From the sequence record AY308796.1: a DNA stretch of 49,902 nucleotides; one strand, 5' to 3'. The position numbers and the translations under genes are program-made. Below are positions 4,061-48,197 of this stretch, one piece after another. The stretch's first letter is position 1, and every line of letters begins with the position of its first letter. The notes beneath the pieces were generated by a model, which did no database searches, was not told the DNA's origin, and saw only the letters and a list, made by a program, of their open reading frames with translations. The DNA is from Escherichia phage Tls.

Positions 4061-4104
4061 ATAGCACTTTTTGCTAAAACTTGCTAAGGCACATTTGATA
4101 AAGT
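4059..4104 (+). promoter_or_regulatory. motif promoter: AAATAGCACTTTTTGCTAAAAC + 18 nt + TGaTAAAGT in hairpin loop
   Basis: Motif 4059-4080; perfect 8-bp inverted repeat aaggcaca/tgtgcctt (4086-4111) flanks -10 TAAAGT 4099-4104. Confidence 0.55.
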
Positions 4105-4137
4105 GTGCCTTGTCGAGACAAGCAAGGAGAATGACAC

Positions 4138-5139: not shown

Positions 5140-5179
5140 CACGAATTGCTAAAAATTACGCAAGGCCATTTGATATAGT
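5134..5179 (+). promoter_or_regulatory. motif promoter: AAATAGCACGAATTGCTAAAAA + 18 nt + TGaTATAGT in hairpin loop
   Basis: Motif 5134-5155; hairpin aaggcca/tggcctt; -10 TATAGT 5174-5179. Confidence 0.55.
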
Positions 5180-5219
5180 GGCCTTATTCAAGAGAAGCAA
5201 CCAATCAGAGGAATAAGCG

Positions 5220-5968: not shown

Positions 5969-6481
5969 ATGATTGCTAAAAATAACCTTCACAACCTTTT
6001 AACTAGTGGTAATGATTATCAGGTACTGAATAGCACAAAAGACCGTTATTTTATAGAATGTGATAATGGTGATCGCATGTGGTTGCGTAAGGATTTTTTC
6101 GAAAGCGAACACCTAAGCAATGCAAAGCGGATCGCAGATGAAGCAAGCGCATTAGCAGAGCGTGAACGAATTCGCGATATAGTAGCGGAGCAGGTTAGAA
6201 ATTCTTGCTTGCCTGGTGGCGATATCTTCAAATCAATGCGCGGTGAAATGACGGTTGGAATTCAAGATCGCGTAATTGAAAAATCAGTTGATTATGTAAT
6301 TGAGAATGCGAAATTCAATGCGTTGATTGACTCAGAGCATAACGAATACGTCAAAGTATTAGAGCAACTGCGTGAAGTGCTGCGAGTGCCGGAAGGTGAA
6401 AATATTGTGACTCATGCAAAGGTTGTAAGAGCGTTGGCTGATGCTTTGCTTGACGTTTACCCAGGAATGAAGTGCAAATAG
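5969..6481 (+). CDS. hypothetical protein (170 aa)
   Basis: In-frame ATG with SD aaggag; stop TAG inside next motif. Confidence 0.55.
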   Translation: MIAKNNLHNLLTSGNDYQVLNSTKDRYFIECDNGDRMWLRKDFFESEHLSNAKRIADEASALAERERIRDIVAEQVRNSCLPGGDIFKSMRGEMTVGIQDRVIEKSVDYVIENAKFNALIDSEHNEYVKVLEQLREVLRVPEGENIVTHAKVVRALADALLDVYPGMKCK

Positions 6482-15020: not shown

Positions 15021-15043
15021 AACGTTTAACAAAAAATGCTATA
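15021..15043 (-). promoter_or_regulatory. degenerate reverse-oriented copy of the 22-nt motif inside the late region
   Basis: Plus strand cgtttaacaaaaaatgctatatt resembles the reverse complement of AAATAGCACTTTTTGTTAAAAC; no clear -10. Confidence 0.3.
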
Positions 15044-24905: not shown

Positions 24906-24927
24906 AAATAGCACAAAAGGTTAAAAG
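24906..24927 (+). promoter_or_regulatory. motif-like sequence AAATAGCACAAAAGGTTAAAAG overlapping the RBS of the J gene
   Basis: Matches the 22-nt motif in both half-sites but lies 3 nt from the start codon, so cannot be a promoter for J. Confidence 0.3.
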
Positions 24928-24929
24928 CT

Positions 24930-27900
24930 ATGATCAAAAATATGATAACTGGCAGTAAGGGCGGTTCTTCAAAGCCTCATACACCTGTTGAAATGGAAGA
25001 TAACCTAATTTCAATCAACAGGATCAGAATTCTTTTAGCCGTTTCTGATGGTGAAGTTGATCCAAACTTTTCATTGAAAGATTTATATTTTGATGACGTT
25101 CCGGTTATGAATCAGGATGGTTCACTAAACTTTCAGAATGTTAAGGCAGAATTCAGACCAGGGACGCAAACGCAGGATTATATTCAGGGCTTTACTGATA
25201 CAGCCAGCGAAGTTACTGTTGCTCGCGATCTGACAGCCGCAACGCCTTATATTATTTCTGTTACCAATAAAAACCTTTCTGCGATCCGTATTAAAATTTT
25301 AATGCCTCGCGGGGTTACTCAGGAAGATAACGGAGATCTAACAGGTGTTCGCGTTGAATATGCTGTTGATATGGCTGTTGATGGTGCTGAATATAAAGAG
25401 GTTTTGCATGATGTAATTGAAGGTAAAACAATGAGCGGTTACGACAGAAGCCGCAGAATTGATTTACCTGCTTTTAATGAGCGTGTTTTATTGCGCGTCC
25501 GTCGCCTGACAGATAGCACGTCAGCAAGGGTAACGGATCTGATTAAAATGCAAAGCTATGCGGAAGTTGTAGACGCTAAATTTCGTTACCCACTGACTGG
25601 TTTAGTCTACGTTGAATTTGATAGCGAATTATTCCCTAATGCGTTACCGAATATCAGCATTAAAAAGAAATGGAACATCATAAATGTTACGTCGAATTAC
25701 GATCCGATTAGCCGCACCTATTCAGGGGCATGGGATGGAACCTGGAAAAAAGCCTGGTCTAATAATCCGGCTTTTGTACTGTATGATTTAATTACCAATC
25801 AGCGTTACGGACTCGATCAAAGAGAGTTAGGCATCGCGCTTGATAAATGGAGCATTTACGAATGTGCGCAGTATTGCGATCAGATGGTTCCAGACGGTAA
25901 AGGCGGAACAGAGCCGCGATATCTTTGCGACGTTGTGATCCAGAGCCAAGTAGAAGCGTATCAGCTTGTGCGTGATATTTGTTCAATCTTCCGTGGCATG
26001 AGCTTTTGGAATGGTGAGAGCCTTTCAATCGTGATCGATAAGCCTCGCGATGCGTCATACATCTTTACTAATGACAACGTGGTTAACGGTGAATTCACTT
26101 ACACGTTTGCCAGCGAAAAAAGCATGTACACGCAATGCAACGTGACTTTCGACGACGAACAAAACATGTATCAACAGGATGTTGAGGGAGTTTTCGAAAC
26201 GGAGGCGGCGTTACGCTTTGGCTATAACAGCACGTCAATTACTGCGATTGGATGCACACGACGCAGCGAAGCCAACCGCCGTGGACGCTGGATTTTAAAA
26301 ACCAACGTCAAGAGCACAACGGTAAACTTTGCTACAGGTCTGGAAGGTATGATCCCAACCGTAGGAGATGTGATTGTTGTATCTGATAACTTTTGGTCAA
26401 GTGCTCTAACGCTGAATCTATCAGGTCGCTTGATGGAGGTTAGCGGGTTGCAGGTGTTCACGCCGTTTAAGGTAGACGCAAGAGCAGGTGATCGCATTCT
26501 GGTAAATAAGCCGGATGGTAAGCCAGTTGGTCGAACCATTGCGCGTGTGAGTGATGACGGTAAAACGCTAACGCTAAACACGACATTTGGTTTTGACGTT
26601 CAGCCGGATACCATTTTTGCAATTGAGCGAACCGATATTGCACAGCAACGATATGTTGTAACCGGAATCACTAAGGGTGACGGTGATGAAGAATTTACCT
26701 ACAACATAACGGCTGTTGAATACGATCCGAACAAATACGATGAAATTGATTATGGCGTAAACATTGATGACCGTCCGACTTCAATCGTGCAGCCTGACAT
26801 TTTGCCAGCACCGCAAAACGTCAAGATCGAATCTTATTCGCGAGTTGTCCAAGGCGCGAGCGTGGAAACAATGCATGTTTCATGGGATAAGGTTGAATAT
26901 GCAAGCCTTTATGAAATGCAGTGGAGAAAAGACAATGGCAACTGGAACAACACGCCGCGCACAGCCAACAAGGAAACGGAAGTTGAAGGAATTTATGCTG
27001 GTAACTATCACGTAAGGGTTAGATCTGTTGCAGCGAATGGTTCAGCGTCTGGATGGTCTGCAATCGTAAGTGCAGGATTAACCGGAAAAGTTGGAGAGCC
27101 GGAAAAGCCAATTAACCTTACAGCGTCTGACAATGAAGTTTTCGGAATTCGCGTAAAATGGGGTATGCCAGAAGGAAGCGGAGACACGGCCTATATAGAG
27201 TTGCATCAAGCGCCAAACGGTTCTGATGGTCATCCTATTGTTGATGAAGCAACGCTCTTAACGCTGATACCGTTCCCGCAATATGAGTATTGGCATTCAA
27301 TACTGCCAGCGGGTCATGTTGTCTGGTACAAGGCAAGGGCAGTTGACAAAATCGGTAACGTTTCTGATTGGACTGATTTTGTGCGCGGCATGGCTTCCGA
27401 CGATACGAGCATTATCACGGATCATATTAAGGTCGATATTGAAAATTCTGATGGCTATAAGTGGTTGCAGGAAAACGCAATAAAGACCAATGATAAGATC
27501 CACAGCACAGCGGAATCAGTGATTGAAAACGCATTAGCTAATGATAAAGATGTTCGACGTATGCGAGTTGAAAACGGAAAGCGTAAAGCGGAGTTCTTGC
27601 AATCGCTGAAACTCATTGCAGACGAAACAGAAGCCAGGGTAACACAGGTCACTCAAATGAGTGCGCAATTTGACGAGAAATTAACGGCTCAAAATAGCGA
27701 GTTGAGAGAGGTAATTGCTAACAGCACTGAAACCATTAGCCAAAGGATTAATCAGCTTACAGCTACGTTTGAGAGTGAAATTGATGGGGTTAAGCAGGAT
27801 ATCAAAGCACAGATAACTGATGTTAACCAGGCAATCACTAATGAAGCGGAAGCGCGAGCGTCAGCGGATAGGGCGTTATCAACTCAAATTGGAGATACCC

Positions 27901-30221: not shown

Positions 30222-30264
30222 ATAGCACTTTTTGCTAAAAAAGCCATTCGATGCGTGGTATACT
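30220..30264 (+). promoter_or_regulatory. motif promoter: AAATAGCACTTTTTGCTAAAAAAG + TATACT in hairpin loop
   Basis: Motif 30220-30241; hairpin gatgcgtg/cacgcatc; -10 TATACT 30259-30264. Confidence 0.5.
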
Positions 30265-30298
30265 ACACGCATCAACCAACGAGAGAGAGGAAATAAAA

Positions 30299-32059: not shown

Positions 32060-34084
32060 TTATGGTAGTTCTGGAATCGTTTCGGCATTACCTCCAGCCA
32101 ATCCAGCAACCATTTTTTTTAATTGTTCAATATCAGCTTTTAAACTTGAAACTTCACTTTCTAACGCTTCATTTTTACCCTGCAACTCTTGAACAACAAC
32201 AATAAGATCAGAAATAACGGCGCGATCATTAACGTTCATGATTTCGAATTCATCACCGTTTTCATCTGTTGCAGTGCCGCCAAAGAAAACGTAAGTGTCG
32301 TCTATTTCAGCCATTTGTTGCGCAAGGTATCCACGCTGCAAAACATGGTTTCCCTTATAATAAAACTCCATAACACCAATCTGTTTAACGCGATCCCATG
32401 CGCCAGGCTTAGGAGGTTCAAATCTATCCTTAATGCGAACATCAGATCCTTGAATAGCGCATCGCCCCTCTGGTGTATAGAATCCATTATCGTTTCTCAT
32501 TGAATACCATACGACATTACCGCCGAATGTGTTAAAAGACCAAACATATTGATACGCCTGCCCAGGAGTACCAACCAAATAATTTTGAATTCCGAACCAT
32601 GAGTTCTCAATATACGTAAGAAGGTTTGAGCCATCGCTTGCTTGCTGTGATTTCTCCTTTATTACAGCAGCAGTCCAAGCGCCGCCTTGACCGTAATAAG
32701 CCTTAGCCCATACCGCATTAAATGTAACATCCTGATCAATTCCAACCCCTAAATTTCGTCTTGCTTGAGCTACATTATCAGCACCAGTGCCACCAGATAC
32801 GATTGGTAGCGCCTTTCTTACTCCAGCGGAGCGATCAAAAACCCCCCAATCACCAGCGCTGTAAACGAAGAAATAAGTGTCTTTATCAGGTGCCCAAAGT
32901 AACGTTTGTTCTCCAAGTCTATCAACCTGGTCAACAAGCAGGTTTTCACGAGCTTTTGCAACAGTTGTTGCACCAGTACCACCTTGCTCAATACCTAGAG
33001 CCGACCAACCTTTTAGATCGCGATTGAACATACCCCATGTGCCATCATTCCTTACAGATATCTCTTTTAAACCATCTGGAGAAAGCATTGACGTAAAAAC
33101 AGAATCCTGAATTATTCTATCAACTTGCAAATTTATTTTTGCTTGCGTAACGTTTTCAGCACCAGTTCCGCCAGCGCCAATAGAAAGTGCCGATGTGCTG
33201 TTGTTGTCATTACGTGCAACTCGCCATTCTCCATTGTTAGCGATCCGCAATTCATAAGTCCATGCAGGATTTCGGAAAGAGTTGTAAGCGCCAGTATCTT
33301 GATCTTTTACAGAATTAACAGCCTCAACTTTCAAAGCTTCCCTTGCAAGGTCTTTGTTTGCAAGATCATTAAGGTTTTGATCCTTATGCAGCAGATTTTC
33401 AGGTTGCACCTGTTGCGCCCATTGGCGAGCTTCATCACGCGCGTCTAACGCTTCATTTTTAATTACGGTTATCTCAGTAACGGCAGAATCCTTAATCTGT
33501 TGCGTTTGGTTTTTTATTGCGTCCGTGTCTGCCTTAATCTGATTGGTTTCAGCAACAGCGGCATCTTTAATCCGTTGCGTTTCATTAACAGCGGTATCCT
33601 TAATCTGTTGCGTTTCAGTAACAGCGTCATCCTTTATTGTTTGCGTGTCGTTTTTTAATTGTTCAGTCGCGGCTCGGTCTGCATCAGTTTTTTGCGCGGA
33701 AGCCTCAGCGCGAGCAACAAGATCCTGTATTGTTTTTAAATCAAAGTTTTTGAAAAATTCAATCGCTTCCTCAATAACAGTTTCTTTACTTTGGTAATAA
33801 CGCAGCGTTTCCGCTACATCTTGCGCCATTCCATCGACAGTTAGCGAGTCATTCAACAGGATCACATAATTTCCGTTTTCTACTGGCTCGCCGTCAGTCT
33901 GGATCGCTTTCATTTCCGTGTCGCTTACAATATCGCTAATCACAGCCAATTTAAGAGGCGATGTGAGAAATACGATTGTTGCGCCAGTACGGATAAGAGA
34001 AAGAGGATCACGCCATTTTGTGCCAGTACCAATAATAACGCCTTGCGCGTCCATTGCAGCCGTACCAGTTCGATATAAAGCCAT
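32060..34084 (-). CDS. side tail fibre with repeated GGTGA motifs and C-terminal intramolecular-chaperone-like domain
   Basis: 674 aa; five GGTGA..A.AR.NL repeats; C-terminal DRAVISDLIVVVQELQ... coiled-coil tail; SD gaggtg. Confidence 0.7.
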   Translation of the reverse strand: MALYRTGTAAMDAQGVIIGTGTKWRDPLSLIRTGATIVFLTSPLKLAVISDIVSDTEMKAIQTDGEPVENGNYVILLNDSLTVDGMAQDVAETLRYYQSKETVIEEAIEFFKNFDLKTIQDLVARAEASAQKTDADRAATEQLKNDTQTIKDDAVTETQQIKDTAVNETQRIKDAAVAETNQIKADTDAIKNQTQQIKDSAVTEITVIKNEALDARDEARQWAQQVQPENLLHKDQNLNDLANKDLAREALKVEAVNSVKDQDTGAYNSFRNPAWTYELRIANNGEWRVARNDNNSTSALSIGAGGTGAENVTQAKINLQVDRIIQDSVFTSMLSPDGLKEISVRNDGTWGMFNRDLKGWSALGIEQGGTGATTVAKARENLLVDQVDRLGEQTLLWAPDKDTYFFVYSAGDWGVFDRSAGVRKALPIVSGGTGADNVAQARRNLGVGIDQDVTFNAVWAKAYYGQGGAWTAAVIKEKSQQASDGSNLLTYIENSWFGIQNYLVGTPGQAYQYVWSFNTFGGNVVWYSMRNDNGFYTPEGRCAIQGSDVRIKDRFEPPKPGAWDRVKQIGVMEFYYKGNHVLQRGYLAQQMAEIDDTYVFFGGTATDENGDEFEIMNVNDRAVISDLIVVVQELQGKNEALESEVSSLKADIEQLKKMVAGLAGGNAETIPELP

Positions 34085-35165: not shown

Positions 35166-35181
35166 TTCTCAACCTCCAAAT

Positions 35182-35214
35182 AAAAAACCTGGCACGATGA
35201 TAAACCATGCCAGG
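35182..35214 (-). terminator. hairpin plus T-tract between regulator and primase genes
   Basis: Stem cctggca/tgccagg with T6 on minus strand. Confidence 0.5.
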
Positions 35215-35223
35215 CCGGAATTT

Positions 35224-35832
35224 TTAGCAATCAGTGCTATCGACGGAAATCACAACGCGTTTCTTCTGATTGGCTTCCTTTGCTTTGCGCCGTTCTTCTT
35301 TCGCCTTTTCGCGTTCAGCTTTGCGCCGCGCTTTCTCCTTCTCGCGTTCTTCTGGACTCATAGACCGCAACGGATCGTAAGGCCGCACAAATCCTCTTGC
35401 TTCCGCTTCCTCTTTGGTTACAAATCGCATCAGCTTTCTGTTGCTGCAACGATTCTCTAATGGCTTGCCGTTATTATCAAATTTGATATCTGGACGGCAA
35501 TATGAAGCGCGGAAGCCGTTAAAACCTTTGCGTCGGTAATCTTTCTGGATCAGTTCAGCGCCTTTAGTTGAAATCATTCCGCGCTCTTTCCATCCCCATA
35601 CTGTTTTAAGGTTAACGCCAATTTCACGAGCCAGGGCAGCGCAACCGCCGTAAGCGTTGACAACTTCATCAAGCCGCGCTTTTAATCCTGCTCTTACTTC
35701 TTCCTTTAATACAAGATAACCGCTAACAGGTGCGCGACGTTTACGATCTTTACCACGTCTTACGCCGTTGTTACCATTGATTGTGCGTTTGTCGATTTCG
35801 CCAGTTGAGGAAGCAATTTTGATTTCGCTCAT
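35224..35832 (-). CDS. HTH DNA-binding protein (putative transcriptional regulator) with Lys/Glu/Arg-rich C-terminal tail
   Basis: Helix-turn-helix-like AALAREIGVNLKTVWGWKERG; divergent from helicase operon; SD aggtga. Confidence 0.55.
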   Translation of the reverse strand: MSEIKIASSTGEIDKRTINGNNGVRRGKDRKRRAPVSGYLVLKEEVRAGLKARLDEVVNAYGGCAALAREIGVNLKTVWGWKERGMISTKGAELIQKDYRRKGFNGFRASYCRPDIKFDNNGKPLENRCSNRKLMRFVTKEEAEARGFVRPYDPLRSMSPEEREKEKARRKAEREKAKEERRKAKEANQKKRVVISVDSTDC

Positions 35833-35840
35833 ATTTTCAC

Positions 35841-35885
35841 CTATAGCACTTTTTGCTAAAAAACTTGATTAAGTTTGTGTATGAT
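35841..35885 (+). promoter_or_regulatory. motif promoter: TATAGCACTTTTTGCTAAAAAAC + TATGAT
   Basis: Motif 35841-35864; -10 TATGAT 35880-35885, which overlaps the -10 of the divergent minus-strand promoter. Confidence 0.5.
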
Positions 35886-35909
35886 ATGCCGCAAATGGCA
35901 TTTAGTCAA
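35881..35909 (-). promoter_or_regulatory. sigma70-like promoter on minus strand TTGACT-N17-TATCAT for the HTH regulator gene
   Basis: Minus-strand -35 at 35904-35909 and -10 at 35881-35886. Confidence 0.45.
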
Positions 35910-35920
35910 AAGGATAAAAA

Positions 35921-37894
35921 ATGATTCCTAACATTGAAAAGCAGATTGCAGATCTGGGAGAGGAAAGAATTAAGGCAATCCAGAAGCGTTTCACGGTTGG
36001 TGAGATTGTCCCGTATGAATACCAATGCGTTGCTTACGCTGAAATTGCAAAGCGCTTGAGCAAGTATGTTGATCCGTTTTTCGTTAAAGCGGCGGTGTCG
36101 GCAGGTAAAACAATCATCTTTGCTATGGTTGCGGCTCAGTGCAGGAAAATGGGATTGAAAGCGTTATTTCTGGCGCGTCAATCTGAAATTGTGGATCAGG
36201 ATTCAAAAGAGATTAGCGCCTTTGGTGTTCCGAATTCCGTTTATTGCGCTGGCCTGAATACCAAAAGCGCTTATTTCCCGATTGTTGTCGGATCGGAAGG
36301 TACTGTAATTGGCGGATTGAATAAGGCGTTAGGTGATTACGTCCCACAGGTTTTAGGTATAGATGAATGTCATCAAGTCAACTGGAATGATATTGTTGAA
36401 GCCGAGGAAAACGGCGAAAGCATAGAGCAGATGATGACGCCGAAAGGTGAACCAGTTGAAGGGAATCCGTTGCTGATTGGTTCAGGCCGCGCACAATACA
36501 CCATTATCATTGCAGAAATGCGCCGCCGTTGTCTTGAGACTTACGGTCATCAGTTGCGTATATTTGGAATGACCGGATCGGAATATCGCGGAATTGAGCC
36601 GATACTTGTCGAAGATAAAAGAATTCCTGGGTTTTGGCGTGAGCAGATCACAAACATTGATACTGATTACCTGGTAAAATTTGGTTCAGTTGTTCCCACT
36701 TATTTTGGCAATGTTGGTGATTTGGGTTACGACTTATCAGAATTTACGCCAGTGCATGAATTTGGCGTTGCTGATTATGACCAGAAGCAATTAAAGGCCA
36801 TGAGTGACAAGATTCACCAATCAGGAACAATGACGCAGAAAATAATGCAGATGGTTCACGAGGTGATGAAAAACCGCTTGTGCGCTCTTGTTACTTGCGC
36901 TGACGAAAGGCACTGCAAAGAGGCGGCGGCGGCGCTTCCGTCTGGCACGAAATATCACATTATTACCGGAAAAACTGGAGAGAAACAGCGGCGCTTATGG
37001 CTTGATGATGCCTATGAAGGGCGAGTGAAATATATTTTCCAGGTTCAGGCGCTAACAACTGGCGTTAACGTTCCGCCGTGGGATACCTCTGTTATTTTGC
37101 GCAAGATCGGAAGTCTTACGCTATTAACTCAGCTTTTGGGTCGTGGTATGCGTCAATTAAAGACTTACCACAAAGAAGTTTTGGGAATGCACAAAACAGA
37201 TCATCTTGTTTTGGACTTTTCCGGCACGATGTTTGAAATGGGTAATTTGTATTTCGATCCAATGCTTGAGCAAGCGCAATTCCAGTTGCGTAAATCGCAG
37301 GATAAAGATCCGAAATTTTGCCCGATTTGCGGAACGGAAAATTCATTCTATGCGCGGCGTTGCATTAATGAGGATGAAAACGGAAATCGTTGTGAGCACT
37401 TTTGGACGTTCCAGGAATGTGAGGATCAGATTGATGAACGTACAAAGAAAGTTATTGTAAAAGGTTGCGGCGCAAAAAATGACGTTGCGGCGCGTGTATG
37501 CCGTTGCTGTAATGTTCAGTTACGAGATCCAAATGATAACTTATCCGGCAAGATGTACCGTAAAAACGATTGGTGCGACGTGTTAGATTTTAATGTGACG
37601 CTGACAAAAAACCAGGCTGGCGTAATATTCTGCTACACGTTGCGTGATAGTGGCGGCGTAGAATTCAGAGCATACGAAAAATATTTCCCTGAATCAGAAC
37701 ACAAGATATGCAAAACGCTTTGGACAAAGGCGGTTAGAACTCACGTTGTAGATCGACAGGCTGCAAACTATATGATCACTTGCCGCAACGCAATTAAGAT
37801 CATGAGTTATGCGGCGCAAATATTGCCACCGAATCGCGTTACGCATCGCAAGAACACAAAGAAAGAAGATTTAATAGCACAGAAGGAATTTTAA
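35921..37894 (+). CDS. SF2 DNA helicase (DEAH-box)
   Basis: Walker A SAGKTII, DEAH box GIDECHQV, C-terminal Cys clusters; 657 aa. Confidence 0.8.
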   Translation: MIPNIEKQIADLGEERIKAIQKRFTVGEIVPYEYQCVAYAEIAKRLSKYVDPFFVKAAVSAGKTIIFAMVAAQCRKMGLKALFLARQSEIVDQDSKEISAFGVPNSVYCAGLNTKSAYFPIVVGSEGTVIGGLNKALGDYVPQVLGIDECHQVNWNDIVEAEENGESIEQMMTPKGEPVEGNPLLIGSGRAQYTIIIAEMRRRCLETYGHQLRIFGMTGSEYRGIEPILVEDKRIPGFWREQITNIDTDYLVKFGSVVPTYFGNVGDLGYDLSEFTPVHEFGVADYDQKQLKAMSDKIHQSGTMTQKIMQMVHEVMKNRLCALVTCADERHCKEAAAALPSGTKYHIITGKTGEKQRRLWLDDAYEGRVKYIFQVQALTTGVNVPPWDTSVILRKIGSLTLLTQLLGRGMRQLKTYHKEVLGMHKTDHLVLDFSGTMFEMGNLYFDPMLEQAQFQLRKSQDKDPKFCPICGTENSFYARRCINEDENGNRCEHFWTFQECEDQIDERTKKVIVKGCGAKNDVAARVCRCCNVQLRDPNDNLSGKMYRKNDWCDVLDFNVTLTKNQAGVIFCYTLRDSGGVEFRAYEKYFPESEHKICKTLWTKAVRTHVVDRQAANYMITCRNAIKIMSYAAQILPPNRVTHRKNTKKEDLIAQKEF

Positions 37895-37895
37895 T

Positions 37896-38303
37896 ATGGT
37901 TACTGATAAAGGTGATTATCTGGAGTATTACGACAAGTCAGATCCAGACGATAGAAAGGAGGAATCGCACCAGGTTGATTCTTATTCATGGCTAACATAT
38001 GAGTTTCCCATGTGGCTTGTTTGGCACACTAAAAACGAGGGGAAGAAAACCATAGGCACAGCCGTAAAGGATCAGCAAGCGGGTGTGAAGAAGGGAGTTA
38101 GCGACATTCTAATCCTGACTGGTTTTATTGGCTGCAAGTATTCATTTATAGCCATTGAGCTTAAACGCGCCAACAAGAAAGGCACGAAGGTAAGCGACGA
38201 ACAAAAGGAATTCTTGCGACGTGTCAGAGAGTGCGGAGGATTTGCCGCCGTATGCTATGGAGTAGAGCAAGTAAAATTGGCTATCGCAGACGCTACAAAA
38301 TAG
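37896..38303 (+). CDS. VRR-NUC domain nuclease
   Basis: Pattern DILILTG...IAIELKRANKKGTKVSDEQKEFLRRV...GGFAAVCYG typical of VRR-NUC (D..E.K core); stop TAG inside next motif. Confidence 0.6.
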   Translation: MVTDKGDYLEYYDKSDPDDRKEESHQVDSYSWLTYEFPMWLVWHTKNEGKKTIGTAVKDQQAGVKKGVSDILILTGFIGCKYSFIAIELKRANKKGTKVSDEQKEFLRRVRECGGFAAVCYGVEQVKLAIADATK

Positions 38304-38343
38304 CACTTTTTGTTAAAACAGGCGCAACGGAATGCGCCATAAT
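38298..38343 (+). promoter_or_regulatory. motif promoter: AAATAGCACTTTTTGTTAAAAC + 18 nt + CATAAT
   Basis: Motif 38298-38319; hairpin ggcgca/tgcgcc; -10 CATAAT 38338-38343. Confidence 0.55.
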
Positions 38344-38374
38344 GCACCCATCAGAACGAAACGGAGAATTAACC

Positions 38375-38653
38375 ATGAAAAAGATGTTATCAGTAGTTGC
38401 TTTATCACTTGCTCTTGTCGGTTGCATGGATAAACCCAAAACATATATTTGCGGAAATGAAGCGTTTGAGGTTACAAGCGACTATATGAAAGTTGTGCAA
38501 GGCAAAAGCACAGGCGTTGTAATGGATAATATCAGCAAAAATCAATATAAGTTGTTTACGCCAATTGGAACGGCTTTCTACACAGTTAATGAAAACACAA
38601 TTGATATTAAAGTTGGCGTTTATCAGAACACTCTAACTTGCGAGGTAAAATAA
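38375..38653 (+). CDS. small lipoprotein (92 aa); candidate superinfection-exclusion protein
   Basis: Signal peptide MKKMLSVVALSLALVGC with lipobox LVGC; SD ggagaa; ORF-track start 38231 is an extension. Confidence 0.6.
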   Translation: MKKMLSVVALSLALVGCMDKPKTYICGNEAFEVTSDYMKVVQGKSTGVVMDNISKNQYKLFTPIGTAFYTVNENTIDIKVGVYQNTLTCEVK

Positions 38654-38654
38654 A

Positions 38655-39395
38655 ATGGCTAAAGATATTCAGGACAAAACCACAATTGACACTTTCGCAC
38701 AGGAAATGGATTTTCATGAACTGCAACACGGCAGATATTCAGATATTGCGTTGCGTTCAGGTGGTCATTATCAGCCAGTTAGAGAAAACCCAATGTTCAA
38801 GGTTAGCGGCAACCGTTATGCAGGAAGTAAAACGCCGGACGTTGTGCGCGACTTGTGGGAAACTCCAGATGAAATTGTTGAATACCTTGCTGAACGTTAC
38901 GGCAAATATGATCTTGACGCAGCAGCAACGGAAGATAATAAAAAATGCGATAAATTTTACAGCAAAGAAACAAACTGCTTAAAGCGTTGGTGGGGTAGCA
39001 ATAAGCACGTTTGGTTAAATCCACCATACAGCAATCCAGATCCATTTATCAAAAAAGCAATTGAGCAGATGGAACACGGAAACCAGATTGATATTTTACT
39101 TCCGGCTGATAATTCAACTGCATGGTTTAGTGACGCACAAAAACACGCGGCAGAAATTATCTGGATTACTGGTGAAACCTGGAAGGATGAAGAAGGTCGC
39201 GAATATTCCCGAACTGGTCGAGTAGCGTTTATTTCTGGCATGACAGGTGAGCCAGTTAGCGGAAACAATAAAGGTAGTGTAATTTTTATCATGCGCCAAT
39301 TGGAAGAAGGTGAGCAACAGCAAACGCACTATGTGAAGATTAGCGACATTTGCCCTTCCGTAAAAAATAAACGAGCCAAAGCGCGGAGTATTTAA
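38655..39395 (+). CDS. dam: DNA N6-adenine methyltransferase (Dam-like)
   Basis: Catalytic motif WLNPPYS (motif IV D/NPPY); 246 aa. Confidence 0.75.
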   Translation: MAKDIQDKTTIDTFAQEMDFHELQHGRYSDIALRSGGHYQPVRENPMFKVSGNRYAGSKTPDVVRDLWETPDEIVEYLAERYGKYDLDAAATEDNKKCDKFYSKETNCLKRWWGSNKHVWLNPPYSNPDPFIKKAIEQMEHGNQIDILLPADNSTAWFSDAQKHAAEIIWITGETWKDEEGREYSRTGRVAFISGMTGEPVSGNNKGSVIFIMRQLEEGEQQQTHYVKISDICPSVKNKRAKARSI

Positions 39396-39396
39396 A

Positions 39397-39627
39397 ATGA
39401 GCATTCGATTAGCCGATCACATGAAATGGGATTTATTTGTCGGTATGACAATTCGCTTACTTGATAAGCATGGTTATAACGCTGATAAAATGGAGTTGAT
39501 AAACTGCCTGGATATGACATTTGACGAAATCAAAGTTGCTCCTTTGTACATGTGGGAAAGAAAAATTGAGCACGACCTGATACAATACAAACGCAGAGAG
39601 GGCGCACGATTTTTTAATGTGAAATAG
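39397..39627 (+). CDS. hypothetical protein (76 aa)
   Basis: ATG 1 nt after Dam stop; stop TAG inside next motif. Confidence 0.5.
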   Translation: MSIRLADHMKWDLFVGMTIRLLDKHGYNADKMELINCLDMTFDEIKVAPLYMWERKIEHDLIQYKRREGARFFNVK

Positions 39628-39667
39628 CACTTTTTGTTAAAACCCGCTACGGCGGGTTTTGTATTAT
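39622..39667 (+). promoter_or_regulatory. motif promoter: AAATAGCACTTTTTGTTAAAAC + terminator-like hairpin + TATTAT
   Basis: Motif 39622-39643; hairpin cccgc tac ggcggg TTTT (39644-39660); -10-like TATTAT 39662-39667. Confidence 0.5.
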
Positions 39668-39698
39668 GTTCTTAACGGAAAACAAGAGGATTTCAAAA

Positions 39699-39863
39699 AT
39701 GAAAATCGTAAACGTCGAATACTTCAAAGATGCGCAATGGCTGGCTAAAGAATCATTATTTATGCTTGATCGCAAAAATCCAAAGGTTATTGCACAAATA
39801 CTTTGGAATGACGCAATGGAGTTACTTAAAAAGGCTTACGGTTATGAAAGTGACAAAAGGTAA
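39699..39863 (+). CDS. hypothetical protein (54 aa)
   Basis: In-frame ATG with SD aagagga. Confidence 0.45.
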   Translation: MKIVNVEYFKDAQWLAKESLFMLDRKNPKVIAQILWNDAMELLKKAYGYESDKR

Positions 39864-40086
39864 AAAGGAAACTTGGGAGTTAGCGAAAAAAGGCGGTCTT
39901 GATGAGGGGATCGCCAAAATAGCGCAATATTTCGATATCAAAGACGTGTGCGTTATTGTCGGTAATGAAATGGCATATGTGGAAGAAAAGCCGCGCAAGG
40001 TTCATCGCGTTCCGGCAATTCCGACAACAATCGACTATAAAGAAGTTATTAACAAAACTAAAGAGCAAAAGAAATATTTCAAATGA
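39844..40086 (+). CDS. hypothetical protein (80 aa)
   Basis: In-frame ATG; ORF-track start is an upstream extension. Confidence 0.4.
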   Translation: MKVTKGKKETWELAKKGGLDEGIAKIAQYFDIKDVCVIVGNEMAYVEEKPRKVHRVPAIPTTIDYKEVINKTKEQKKYFK

Positions 40087-40159
40087 GATACATTTACGTT
40101 ATTATATTTCCTCCTGTTATAGCTTGGGTTATTGTTTATTTTTTAGTTATGGGGTTGTC

Positions 40160-40636
40160 ATGAACTATAATGATTTATTTTCATATGAAAATGGAGCGCT
40201 TACAAGAAAGGTGGCGAAATCTAAAAGATGTAGGATTGGCGATCCTGTTGGATGGATCAACGGAAATGGTTACTTGCAAACAAGTGTATCAGGTAAAAAT
40301 GTTCTTGTTCATCGTATAATATGGGAAATGCACAACGGGAAAATTCCAAATGGAATGGAAATTGATCATATAAATCACGATAGAACTGATAACAGGATTG
40401 AAAATCTAAGAATTGTTAATCACAAAGATAATCATAAAAACGTATCAATGCAATCAAATAATAAAACTGGGGTTTGTGGGGTCTGCTTTATAGAAAGATG
40501 CAATAAGTTCAGAGCATCAATAAAGGTTGACGGGGTAACTATATATTTGGGATACTTTAGCAGCATTGATGATGCTAAAAATGCAAGAAAGAAAGCAAAT
40601 GATAGATTTAATTTTCACAAAAACCACGGAGTTTAA
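40160..40636 (+). CDS. HNH homing endonuclease with AP2-like DNA-binding domain
   Basis: HNH core EIDHINHDRTDNRIENLRIVNHKDNHKN plus C-terminal GV.GV......KF.A.I AP2-like region; SD ggggt; paralogue of 47608-48120. Confidence 0.8.
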   Translation: MNYNDLFSYENGALTRKVAKSKRCRIGDPVGWINGNGYLQTSVSGKNVLVHRIIWEMHNGKIPNGMEIDHINHDRTDNRIENLRIVNHKDNHKNVSMQSNNKTGVCGVCFIERCNKFRASIKVDGVTIYLGYFSSIDDAKNARKKANDRFNFHKNHGV

Positions 40637-40639
40637 TAA

Positions 40640-41755
40640 ATGACTGCTAAAAAAATTACGGATGAGCAATTGATTGCAGAGCGCGAAGCGGGTTTAAAGT
40701 TGCGAGAGATTGCTGAAAAGTACGGAATGAGCTTACGCCAGGTTGAGCACCGTCACAGCAAATTGGCTAAGCGTGGCGAAATCTCAACTATCGGATCACC
40801 TGGCTTTGCGGTAATTGGTGAATCGCAGCTTAAACGTGCTAATGGTGAGGTTGTAATTACTTGGACCAAAACGCATAAGGATAAAGAGCAATTAGAAGCA
40901 ATTATGCAAGCGGCTATGGATGCATTTTCGGAAGAAGTGCCGCGCATTAAGCCGCAACCGGAAAAAATTACTGATTACTCGCAAACGCTGGCGCTATATC
41001 CGATCTTTGATATTCACATTGGCGCAATGGCTCATAAGCATGAAAGCGGTGAGAATTACGACACGGCAACGGCGGAAAACGTCATGAATGAGTTTTTCGA
41101 TTATGCAGTTGATAAAGCGCCCAATAGCGAAAAGGCTGTATTGCTGATTGGTGGTGATATGATTCACAGTGACGGTCTGGAGGCTGTAACACCTGCAAGC
41201 GGTCACGTTTTGGATCAAGATAGCCGTTACGCAAAACTTGTTTATGTTGCTATCCGCGCCACGCGTCGAGCAGTAAGCAGAATGCTGGAAAAACATAAAG
41301 AGGTTGAATTGCAGATCATTGAAGGTAATCACGACCAATCAGGAATGATCTGGCTGCGTGCTGCAATGGCGGCGGCGTATGAGAATGAGCCACGCGTAAA
41401 GGTTGATGTTTCTCCGCGTGTCGTGCATCACACGCAATATGGAAAAACGTTCCTGGCTTATCATCATGGTCACACTGTACGCAAGCCAGAAACGCTTTTA
41501 ATGATGTGTGCAGCGGATTGGCGGGAAGATTTCGGAAACTCCAATTCAATGTATGCGCATGTAGGGCATTGGCATCACCAGACTGTTACAGAAACGAGCC
41601 TTGGCATTGTTGAGGTGCATAGCACTATGGCGGCTAAAGATGCTTATGCCGCGCGTGGCGGTTGGCGTTCACGCCGTCGAGCGGCGGTAATTATCTATGA
41701 TAAGGAATATGGCGAGATAGGGCGCTTTATGTTCTACCCTGAAATGATTGCATAA
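40640..41755 (+). CDS. HTH-domain plus calcineurin-like metallophosphoesterase fusion protein
   Basis: N-terminal HTH-like LKLREIAEKYGMSLRQV; phosphoesterase motifs DIHIG, GGDMIHSD, EGNHDQ, GHWHH. Confidence 0.6.
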   Translation: MTAKKITDEQLIAEREAGLKLREIAEKYGMSLRQVEHRHSKLAKRGEISTIGSPGFAVIGESQLKRANGEVVITWTKTHKDKEQLEAIMQAAMDAFSEEVPRIKPQPEKITDYSQTLALYPIFDIHIGAMAHKHESGENYDTATAENVMNEFFDYAVDKAPNSEKAVLLIGGDMIHSDGLEAVTPASGHVLDQDSRYAKLVYVAIRATRRAVSRMLEKHKEVELQIIEGNHDQSGMIWLRAAMAAAYENEPRVKVDVSPRVVHHTQYGKTFLAYHHGHTVRKPETLLMMCAADWREDFGNSNSMYAHVGHWHHQTVTETSLGIVEVHSTMAAKDAYAARGGWRSRRRAAVIIYDKEYGEIGRFMFYPEMIA

Positions 41756-41772
41756 TTAAATTATCACCTAAA

Positions 41773-41802
41773 AAGGCTAGCTAAATGCTAGCCTTTTTTT
41801 GT
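41773..41802 (+). terminator. rho-independent terminator (ggctagc taaat gctagcc ttttttt)
   Basis: Read directly. Confidence 0.7.
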
Positions 41803-41867
41803 TTTTGTCGTTAACATAATCAGACTATTTTTGACATTGACATTTTAATTAAACTGAGGATCAGATC

Positions 41868-42092
41868 ATGAGGGACTTTCTTTTAATGGCGCAAAACTCT
41901 TTCGGAGGTGCAACGGTAGTTGGAACTTTTACTGGTGAGTTTTTGCTTGCACTTGCTACGTTTATTTTGTTCGCTATTTTCGGCTGTTGGGGCGCATGGC
42001 TGAAATGGCGTGATAGTAAAGCGATCCGAGAGGCTTTAGATTCAGGGGATTTAAAAACGGCGCTTAATCTACGGCAGAAAGAGAGGGTGTAA
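41868..42092 (+). CDS. holin (probable pinholin)
   Basis: 74 aa with TM segments and charged C-terminus; immediately upstream of SAR endolysin; SD gagga. Confidence 0.6.
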
Positions 42093-42586
42093 TGACAATC
42101 AAGAAAGGTATAGCCGCCACCGTCACAGGGGCGGCTTTAATGTTGGCATCGCCTTTGATTGAAGAAATTGAAGGCGTAAAGTATAAGCCTTACAAGGATA
42201 TTGCTGGTATCTGGACTGTATGCCACGGCATCACAGGAAATGATGTGATTCTTGGAAAGGAATATACCAGGCGAGAGTGTGACGCGCTATTAGCAAAGCA
42301 TATGAAAGTAGCGGCTGACGCTGTTGATAAAGCTGTTAAGGTTGATATTCCTATTTCTATGCGAGCGGCTTTGTACTCATTCACATTCAACGCCGGAACA
42401 GGGGCATTCAGGAAATCAACCATGTTGAAGAAGATCAATAATGGTGATCTGTATGGTGGTTGTGGCGAGCTTTGGAACTGGACATATTACCGGAACCCGA
42501 AAACGGGCAAAAAGGAAAAATCAAAGGGATTGAAGAATCGCCGCGCTGTTGAATATAAATATTGTGTAATGGATCTGAATAAATGA
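42092..42586 (+). CDS. SAR endolysin (T4-type lysozyme, GH24-like)
   Basis: N-terminal signal-anchor-release segment [18 protein letters not shown]; catalytic E/D/T pattern [21 protein letters not shown]. Confidence 0.75.
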
Positions 42587-42972
42587 AAAGAAAATTACTG
42601 GCTATTATGATGTGCATTGCTCTTTCTGGTTGTTCAGCTTCAAGCGTGTTACCTGGTCTGATTGGTAGCAAGCCTGATATAACGGCACAGGCTGGAGCGG
42701 AGAATGTGAAACAGACTGTTGGTGTAACCGCAAAGCAGGATACATCAAGCAAGCAGGAAACCACATTCAAAGAATCGGAAGTTGGTCAAGTTGACACATC
42801 CAATAAAAAGCAGGTGAGTACCTCAAGCATCAAGGCTGATAACATTACGGCGGAAAGAATAGAAATTCGCAATAATGACGGCCTTAACGTTCCGGCAATC
42901 GCAATGGGTATATTGATGTTCATTGCTGGTATGCTGGCAGGTTGGACGCTAAAACGTAATAAGGCGGCATAA
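42583..42972 (+). CDS. unimolecular spanin (u-spanin)
   Basis: N-terminal lipoprotein signal with lipobox LSGC and C-terminal TM anchor [17 protein letters not shown]; overlaps endolysin stop. Confidence 0.65.
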
Positions 42973-45109: not shown

Positions 45110-45155
45110 ATTATAACGGCAACATTCTACAGCCTTTTAGCAATTCGTGCTATTT
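45110..45155 (-). promoter_or_regulatory. motif promoter (minus): AAATAGCACGAATTGCTAAAAG + 18 nt + TATAAT in hairpin loop
   Basis: Motif reverse complement at 45135-45155; -10 at 45110-45115; hairpin gttgccg/cggcaac. Confidence 0.55.
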
Positions 45156-48120: not shown

Positions 48121-48151
48121 TTCAAATTCTCCGGTTAGTTTCGATGAATGT

Positions 48152-48197
48152 ATTATGCCAAAACAAACCGGATCGCTTTTAACAAAAAGTGCTATTT
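48152..48197 (-). promoter_or_regulatory. motif promoter (minus): AAATAGCACTTTTTGTTAAAAG + CATAAT
   Basis: Motif reverse complement 48177-48197; -10 at 48152-48157. Confidence 0.55.

Follow-up and report, generated by a model that had tools for sequence, protein, structure and literature searches.

Bidirectional promoters, as described by Warman/Grainger, have divergent start sites that flank or lie within a shared −10 element, most commonly 18 base pairs (bp) apart; basal interference between the two directions is slight, and activation of one direction represses the other, usually through competition for RNA polymerase (PMC12825309). At Escherichia coli PacrA/acrR, SoxS at a marbox activates acrA and shuts off acrR, elongation is not blocked by the bound protein, and an activator site at −40.5 acts likewise (PMC12825309). 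The marbox, which is the site of MarA, SoxS, and Rob, is non-palindromic (5′-gcannwwntgnnaaa-3′) and in class II promoters points forward and overlaps the −35 (PMC12052159); structural work describes 20 bp in which the A site is GCAC and the B site is CAAA (PMC9638938, PMC9178005). In the class II micF promoter, the marbox is centred at −41.5, and Rob, in contact with −47G and −45A, pushes sigma region 4 off the −35 (PMC9638938, PMC9178005). Salmonella class II sites point forward, lie near −41, and accompany a canonical −10 and no recognisable −35 (PMC10268841). Here we describe a related arrangement in Escherichia phage TLS, a T1-like siphophage (Drexlerviridae, Tlsvirus) whose whole genome of 49,902 bases is the window analysed. 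The locus is the 88-bp gap (35833-35920) between the minus-strand open reading frame (ORF) of gp57, a helix-turn-helix (HTH) protein of 202 amino acids (aa), and the plus-strand gene of the 657-aa helicase gp58. The best explanation of this gap as a whole, to which we assign a rough probability of 55%, is a bidirectional promoter whose helicase side is activated by host MarA, SoxS, or Rob.

The TLS gap resembles PacrA/acrR in its shared −10, in setting an HTH regulator against "work" genes, and in placing the candidate marbox within the transcribed region of the regulator. However, the marbox of acrA/acrR points backward, lies in a distal position (class I type), and overlaps the start codon of acrR, whereas the TLS box is forward, of class II type, and not accompanied by a −35. 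The operator of AcrR, a TetR-type repressor, is known, whereas gp57, perhaps Cro-like in fold, has no known site; and acrA/acrR has been shown experimentally, whereas the TLS gap belongs to a virulent phage and is known from sequence. The micF promoter shares with the phage arrangement a 20-bp forward box containing GCAC and (C/T)AAA, a distance of 18 nucleotides (nt) to the −10, and the lack of a usable −35. In contrast to micF, a single host gene, the phage has ~17 to 25 near-identical copies per genome with a common leader and, often, inverted repeats around the −10; the −10 of the TLS helicase copy lies 17 nt after the 20-bp box instead of the 18 nt of most copies. Among phages, the Mor/C promoters of Mu, the MotA/AsiA middle promoters of T4, and the p4 promoters of phi29 have, ahead of a normal −10, a conserved box in place of the −35, and in the phi29 p4 switch one bound activator turns the divergent A2b/A3 promoters on on one side and off on the other. 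In these three phages the reader is phage encoded, whereas the TLS box matches a host factor site; the MotA box of T4 lies near −30 and the TLS box near −40.

The shared −10 between gp57 and the helicase gene

The genes that border the gap and the elements within it are listed below; RBS stands for ribosome-binding site.

35224-35832, minus strand: gp57, "transcriptional regulator," 202 aa (ORF and TLS annotation)
35830-35832, minus strand: gp57 start codon
35837-35842 (complement), minus strand: gp57 RBS AGGTGA, seen in the sequence; beside the repeat in all lineages
35841-35861: DR11 of the published annotation, a 21-nt direct repeat
35843-35861, plus strand: motif ATAGCAC-N3-TTGYTAAAA
35843-35862, plus strand: 20-bp candidate marbox ATAGCACTTTTTGCTAAAAA, with A site GCAC at 35846-35849 and B site CTAAA at 35856-35860
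35874-35892: 18-bp interval between predicted start sites, from the −10 positions
35880-35885, plus strand: helicase −10 hexamer TATGAT, without a −35
35881-35886, minus strand (read 35886-35881): −10 hexamer TATCAT of P57, the gp57 promoter
35904-35909, minus strand (read 35909-35904): P57 −35 hexamer TTGACT, with a 17-nt spacer
35910-35914, plus strand: helicase RBS AAGGA; phage U136B has an annotated RBS in the corresponding position
35921-37894, plus strand: gp58, DNA helicase (ResIII/Helicase_C)

P57 reads TTGACT-17-TATCAT, a 10/12 match to the sigma-70 consensus with the spacing expected of such a promoter, and serves a gene with its own RBS and a predicted leader of ~42 nt. The plus- and minus-strand −10 hexamers overlap by 5 bp within the common sequence TATGATA, as in the shared −10 of bidirectional promoters, and therefore only one RNA polymerase could be accommodated at a time. 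By a 7-nt rule, the predicted start sites are at ~35892 (plus) for the helicase and ~35874 (minus) for gp57, 18 bp apart. Other elements are specific to one direction: the −35 TTGACT serves the minus strand only and lies at ~+12 to +17 of the predicted helicase transcript, and the conserved box serves the plus strand only, extending from ~−49 to −30 relative to the predicted helicase start, which corresponds to ~+13 to +32 of the gp57 transcript. The sequence-only reading had placed two divergent, overlapping promoters here, and each of their elements was found in its proposed position. The same reading had a 22-nt motif abutting the regulator start codon; the motif is present, but it ends 8 nt away from the ATG. 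The published 21-nt repeat overlaps the gp57 RBS AGGTGA by 2 nt.

Gene order supports a promoter for gp57 in this place. The gene forms a single-gene unit, P57-gp57-T57, with a divergent neighbour upstream and the strong terminator T57 behind it, and thus needs a promoter of its own. Because every gene in the stretch that runs from the helicase (35921) through gp69 (end 42972) lies on the strand opposite gp57, the gp57 start must lie in or just beyond the gap. The published annotation of TLS lists P57 at 35881-35909 on the minus strand and DR11 at 35841-35861 (PMC11447400). Both are therefore published features; their overlap is not previously described.

To assess conservation, we compared the gp57-helicase gap in nine sequence-divergent lineages: Tlsvirus, T1-like, W011D-like, Rtp-like, Rogue1/C119-like, one further IMG/VR lineage, Webervirus NJS1, Vilniusvirus HazelMika, and Henuseptimavirus AS5. 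Homologues of gp57 occur in 823 phage records, and the locus region is 97 to 99% identical between TLS and many Tlsvirus records. In all nine lineages, the repeat lies beside the gp57 RBS, the helicase −10 follows 18 to 19 nt on, and the best promoter in the gp57 direction has a −10 that overlaps the helicase −10. The two −10s are offset by 1 nt (TAnnnTA) in eight of the nine and by 4 nt in the Rtp-like lineage. Promoters in the gp57 direction include TTGAAT-17-TATAAT in T1, TTGTCA-16-TATAAT (11/12) in the Klebsiella phage NJS1, TTGAGG-16-TATAAT in HazelMika, and TTGTCT-17-TACAAT in Rtp; the −35 is weaker in some lineages (TTTAAT, TTAACG). Tlsvirus members differ in the spacers but not in the repeat, TTTGTGTATGATAT, or GCAAATGGCATTTAGTCAAAAGG, and the repeat is invariant over three subfamilies, all on enteric hosts. 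As judged from these alignments, conservation is stronger evidence for the overlapping arrangement than the hexamer match. We conclude that the gap is probably a real bidirectional promoter pair. The idea that transcription in the two directions would be mutually exclusive likewise gains support from the shared −10, the ~18-bp start spacing, the family-wide conservation, and the Warman/Grainger precedent.

The repeat as a promoter cassette and candidate marbox

The box in the gap is one of 19 copies of the motif ATAGCAC-N3-TTGYTAAAA in the TLS genome, compared with 0.2 expected:

1523, 1929, 2557, 4061, 5136, 6478, 24908, 30222, 35843, 38300, 39624, plus strand: motif copies
15042, 35240, 45153, 45830, 47243, 48195, 48919, 49782, minus strand: motif copies

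We aligned the repeat copies of TLS, T1, and Rtp, allowing up to three mismatches (n = 67). In 55 of these 67, a −10-like hexamer lies 37 to 39 nt, nearly always 38, from the first A of ATAGCAC. The hexamers score 4 to 6 of 6, typically read TATAGT, CATAAT, or TATAAT, and are followed by a leader of ~35 to 45 nt, an RBS, and an ATG. The −35 position reads AAAAnn (TAAAAA, 3/6, at the helicase copy), so the cassettes are without a −35; a consensus scan accordingly called no plus-strand sigma-70 promoter in the gap. About 10 of 17 TLS copies (~60%) have an extended −10, with TG at −15/−14. T1-like phages carry ~15 to 25 near-identical cassettes per genome and use them for most of their non-structural genes; the cassettes precede early, replication, and accessory genes but not the structural block. 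By sequence and placement, then, the repeat forms the upstream part of a promoter.

The published TLS annotation reports 18 intergenic copies of the 21-nt direct repeat, DR11 among them, pointing along transcription ~76 nt before start codons and present also in T1, Rtp, and Rogue1 (PMC11447400). It leaves their function open as a stoperator, enhancer-binding site, or UP element, and makes no mention of a fixed −10, the overlap with P57, a marbox, or a host factor (PMC11447400). In the literature we found no other paper describing the repeat. In an IMG/VR scan for the repeat outside Drexlerviridae, multi-copy matches were all on contigs of ~45 to 53 kb or fragments, and single matches were chance-like.

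Other identities for the repeat were considered and rejected. The UP element and the stoperator do not agree with the invariant G/C positions (GCAC, TG) or with the fixed distance of 37 to 39 nt to the −10 in 55 of 67 copies. TTGYTA is not a −35, because the resulting 22-nt spacer is too long. A sigma-54 promoter, suggested by a likeness to TGGCAC-N5-TTGC, has AG in place of GG, a spacing 2 bp short, and a sigma-70 −10 at a fixed distance. A site for a dimeric class II activator (dyad TAGCA-N5-TGCTA, at −42) was set aside because of the strict orientation of the repeat and the shortness of the dyad, which is imperfect in half of the copies.

At each position that the host marbox specifies, the repeat agrees with it. 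The sequence GCACTTTTTGCTAAA has 0 mismatches to gcannwwntgnnaaa, reading GCA-CT-TT-T-TG-CT-AAA; GCAC forms its A site and YAAA its B site. Exact matches to this consensus number 19 in TLS, 20 in T1, and 14 in Rtp, compared with 1 to 2 in dinucleotide shuffles (TLS expectation, 1.9). A longer, 20-mer form of the consensus is AYnGCACnnWnnRYYAAAYn, which we did not find spelled out in a paper; in the shorter form AYnGCACnnWnnRYYAAA, it has 17, 15, and 13 matches in TLS, T1, and Rtp, respectively, compared with ~0.1 in shuffles. The E. coli micF promoter consists of ACAGCACTGAATGTCAAAAC, 18 nt, TAGAAT, 7 nt, and the first MicF base, and the phage cassette consists of ATAGCACnnnTTGYTAAAAn, 18 nt, and the −10 hexamer. 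Counting from the −10 upstream to the G of GCAC gives 35 nt for micF and the cassette alike, so their registers are identical. The mar operon box, ATGCCACGTTTTGCTAAATC, is also very close to the repeat. The repeat is in forward orientation, with GCAC distal and AAA proximal to the −10, and is centred at ~−40 from the predicted start, inside the class II range (about −36 to −55); the cassettes also show the canonical −10 and missing −35 of class II promoters. Our literature search found no paper linking marboxes or MarA, SoxS, or Rob with T1-like phages. From this fit, the conserved box is most likely, although with only modest confidence, a class II marbox read by host MarA, SoxS, or Rob (RamA in Klebsiella and Salmonella).

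We also asked what gp57 itself could bind. The protein falls in phrog_2856 ("transcriptional regulator"), and its Pfam match to YdaS (residues 54 to 91) is weak and below the cut-off; precomputed Pfam matches of its homologues include P22_Cro and YdaS. Its AlphaFold2 model has a mean predicted local distance difference test (pLDDT) score of 84.7, above 90 over residues 41 to 140, and a helical core at residues 44 to 101. The best matches of this core in a Foldseek search were Xfaso1 Cro, N15 Cro, C.Esp1396I, restriction-modification controllers, and YdaS, all weak (best expectation value 0.02; template modeling score 0.7 over ~63 residues). Homologues share a conserved N-terminal arm (DKRTINGNNG..R) and C-terminal part. 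The predicted recognition helix differs among T1, Rtp, and TLS (NLKTVWGW, SNQTVQGW, TPQAVEEW) and varies widely in other homologues too (e.g., GTVRHW), while the repeat is identical. Because the helix varies while the repeat stays constant, gp57 is an unlikely reader of the repeat; a conserved host protein as reader would be expected to leave such a pattern.

Small palindromes in the gap were considered as operators or hairpins and rejected: AACTT/AAGTT and ATGCC/GGCAT are not conserved in Tlsvirus relatives, being broken without compensation where gp57 is 93 to 99% identical, and the gap therefore offers no candidate gp57 operator. No conserved palindromic operator that co-varies with the helix was found in the gap, where the unchanging repeat is the only conserved box. 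The sequence-only reading had also suggested autoregulated transcription here; the variable helix against a constant repeat, the broken palindromes, and the fit of the 22-nt motif to the host marbox speak against autoregulation in which the HTH protein acts on that motif. The published annotation names a second HTH protein in TLS, gp70. A phage AraC-type protein was found neither in that annotation nor in a Pfam scan of 10 further small TLS proteins.

Proposed mechanism and competing explanations

From the observed elements, their spacing and conservation, and the fit to the marbox, we infer both start sites, host-factor binding, and the outcome of competition as follows. P57 would be open to host polymerase on phage entry and, because it has a −35, should win on naked DNA. 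The helicase promoter, with no −35, would depend on, or be strongly helped by, MarA, SoxS, or Rob at 35843-35862. Polymerase recruited rightward would then occupy the shared −10, and gp57 transcription would fall by competition. Host stress-regulator activity would in this way set the gp57:helicase ratio.

Several points weigh against this mechanism or its parts. The repeat is more conserved (ATA before GCAC, TTG) than a degenerate marbox requires, which could mean another, more specific reader. The helicase copy has 17-nt instead of the usual 18-nt spacing in both TLS and Rtp. Without stress, cells have little MarA and SoxS and reportedly keep most of their Rob sequestered, and yet T1-like phages grow fast in ordinary laboratory cultures; the cassettes may thus work without an activator, through their good, often extended −10s. 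Regarding P57, a 10/12 sigma-70 match alone is without genome-wide significance, and the second −10 is partly automatic, because −10 hexamers are near-palindromic; the required A after the hexamer is found in 6 of 17 other TLS cassettes as well. Finally, the literature that we searched held no start-site, RNA sequencing, or binding data for any T1-like phage.

The growth of these phages in unstressed cells is also an argument for a reading in which the promoters are real and competing and the repeat needs no activator, acting as an enhancer-like element whose likeness to a marbox is coincidental or vestigial. The strong −10s of the cassettes, with TG at −15/−14 in many, agree with this, and an UP-like enhancer was suggested by the TLS authors (PMC11447400). 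However, a chance match of ~20 bits, together with the orientation and the micF spacing, is very unlikely. UP elements, moreover, are A/T tracts that act through the minor groove, whereas the repeat has invariant GCAC and TG in the two-site layout of a marbox. We consider this activator-free reading unlikely. The possibility that P57 is a by-product of −10 symmetry and a chance −35, unused, with gp57 transcribed elsewhere or weakly, seems very improbable. Sigma-70 matches of 10/12 are no commoner in the genome than chance (12 observed versus 17.5 ± 4.1 in shuffles), and TAnnnT followed by A gives a reverse −10 automatically; the hexamers alone therefore prove little, and the case for P57 rests on context and conservation. 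A 10/12 match within the 88-bp gap on the right strand has a chance of ~1%. The opposite orientation of the genes at 35921-42972 confines the gp57 start to the gap or its vicinity, a −35-like hexamer at 16 to 17 nt is present in nine lineages (10 to 11 of 12 in T1, TLS, NJS1, and HazelMika), and TTGACT is invariant in Tlsvirus.

Alternatively, gp57 might bind the 21-nt repeat itself, activating the helicase and the other cassettes and repressing its own promoter as an immediate-early master activator. It is the annotated regulator and forms a single-gene unit on a sigma-70-type promoter, unlike most non-structural genes, which have repeat cassettes. A short dyad, TAGCA-N5-TG(C/T)TA, near −42 in the repeat would suit a dimeric class II activator, and the fold predicted for gp57 weakly resembles that of Cro and C proteins, a family that includes autoregulators. 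In contrast, the predicted base-contacting helix positions vary among homologues whose repeats are identical. Strong asymmetry and a strict orientation mark the repeat, whose dyad is only 5 bp long and imperfect in half of the copies; each specified position and the register agree with the site of a monomeric host factor with two HTH motifs. Early genes that await a phage protein would also be awkward to reconcile with a very short latent period. We regard this role for gp57 as improbable, and prefer activation of the helicase promoter by host MarA, SoxS, or Rob.

Further repeat copies, neighbouring genes, and significance

The features adjoining the gp57 and helicase units are as follows.

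35178-35214, minus strand: terminator T57, end of the gp57 unit
35242-35222, minus strand: DR10 repeat of the primase gp56 promoter, with −10 TATCAT at 35202-35197
37896-38303, plus strand: gp59, VRR-NUC nuclease, after gp58
38300, plus strand: next motif promoter after gp58/gp59

The primase gene gp56 lies downstream of gp57 and is driven by the promoter with DR10. T57 and this promoter are interleaved (35178-35242): the primase −10 sits in the loop of the terminator hairpin, just past DR10. Terminator T62 likewise overlaps a cassette (39624-39665).

Inverted-repeat arms flank the −10 in many cassettes, placing it in a hairpin loop (1540-1575, 4080-4110, 5155-5185, 30240-30275, 45110-45135, and others). 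The longest perfect arm around the −10 averaged 5.24 nt, compared with 4.00 ± 0.12 with permuted partners, and arms of at least 6 nt were present in 23 of 55 cassettes. Because the arm sequences differ between copies, the inverted repeat is not a common protein site. The T1 helicase promoter (T1 36463-36500) has such a repeat, ACGTTTAC/GTAAACGT; the TLS helicase copy has none. Cassette leaders also contain a C/A-rich motif (approximately CATCGAAACGAAAC) before the RBS (1566-1580, 38350-38365, 48140-48155, and many in T1 and Rtp), which is absent from the helicase leader and might act in translation or stability, or be a sign of cassette mobility. In the structural region of Rtp, cassettes at 6316, 8425, 16303, and 21393 precede inserted HNH endonuclease genes and small extra genes, suggesting that the cassette travels with mobile or accessory genes.

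Some copies of the repeat are placed differently. The copy ATAGCACAAAAGGTTAAAA at 24908-24926 (plus) has no −10; it takes in the RBS of gp50, which encodes the large tail fibre, and stops 3 nt short of the ATG. It is kept at the same place in T1 (25021-25039), and a protein bound there could affect translation or read-through instead of initiation. Antisense copies lie just upstream of highly expressed late genes: those at the major capsid gene (TLS 15024-15042, minus; T1 15086, minus) have no −10 and the same position in both phages, and a T1 copy upstream of the tape-measure chaperone (18850, minus) has only a weak TAAGAT (4/6).

Two observations concern genes beyond the promoters. gp60 is annotated at 38231-38653 (plus), overlapping gp59, but the cassette box at 38300, the −10 CATAAT at 38338-38343, and the RBS point to a start at 38375. 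The resulting 92-aa protein would begin MKKMLSVVALSLALVGC, a typical lipoprotein signal, and is possibly a superinfection-exclusion protein. The 674-aa tail-fibre-like gp55 contains, at 33457-33652 (minus), 33-nt tandem repeats that encode a peptide unit of ~11 residues, e.g., TQQIKDSAVTE.

To our knowledge, T1, a classic coliphage, has no RNA polymerase or sigma gene. The 2024 re-annotation of TLS listed no more than three ordinary promoters and offered no settled explanation of the 21-nt repeat (PMC11447400). New here are the overlap of P57 with the DR11 promoter, the fixed −10, and the proposed marbox identity of the family-wide repeat; it is the last that merits work at the bench. Should the marbox reading fail, the locus would still be an ordinary overlapping divergent promoter pair, each member of which was already annotated separately. 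The locus would be a clean, family-wide conserved viral bidirectional promoter with the logic of acrA/acrR. More broadly, we tentatively propose, as a possibility, that T1-like phages drive most of their non-structural genes from ~15 to 25 class II marbox promoters, borrowing MarA, SoxS, and Rob (RamA) instead of encoding a phage activator or sigma factor, with the gp57/helicase promoter as a switch set by stress. If true, the class II marbox reading would give a concrete answer to how T1 transcription is controlled. It would also tie phage expression to the host regulators of drug efflux and of TolC, the TLS receptor, and would be relevant to phage-antibiotic combinations.

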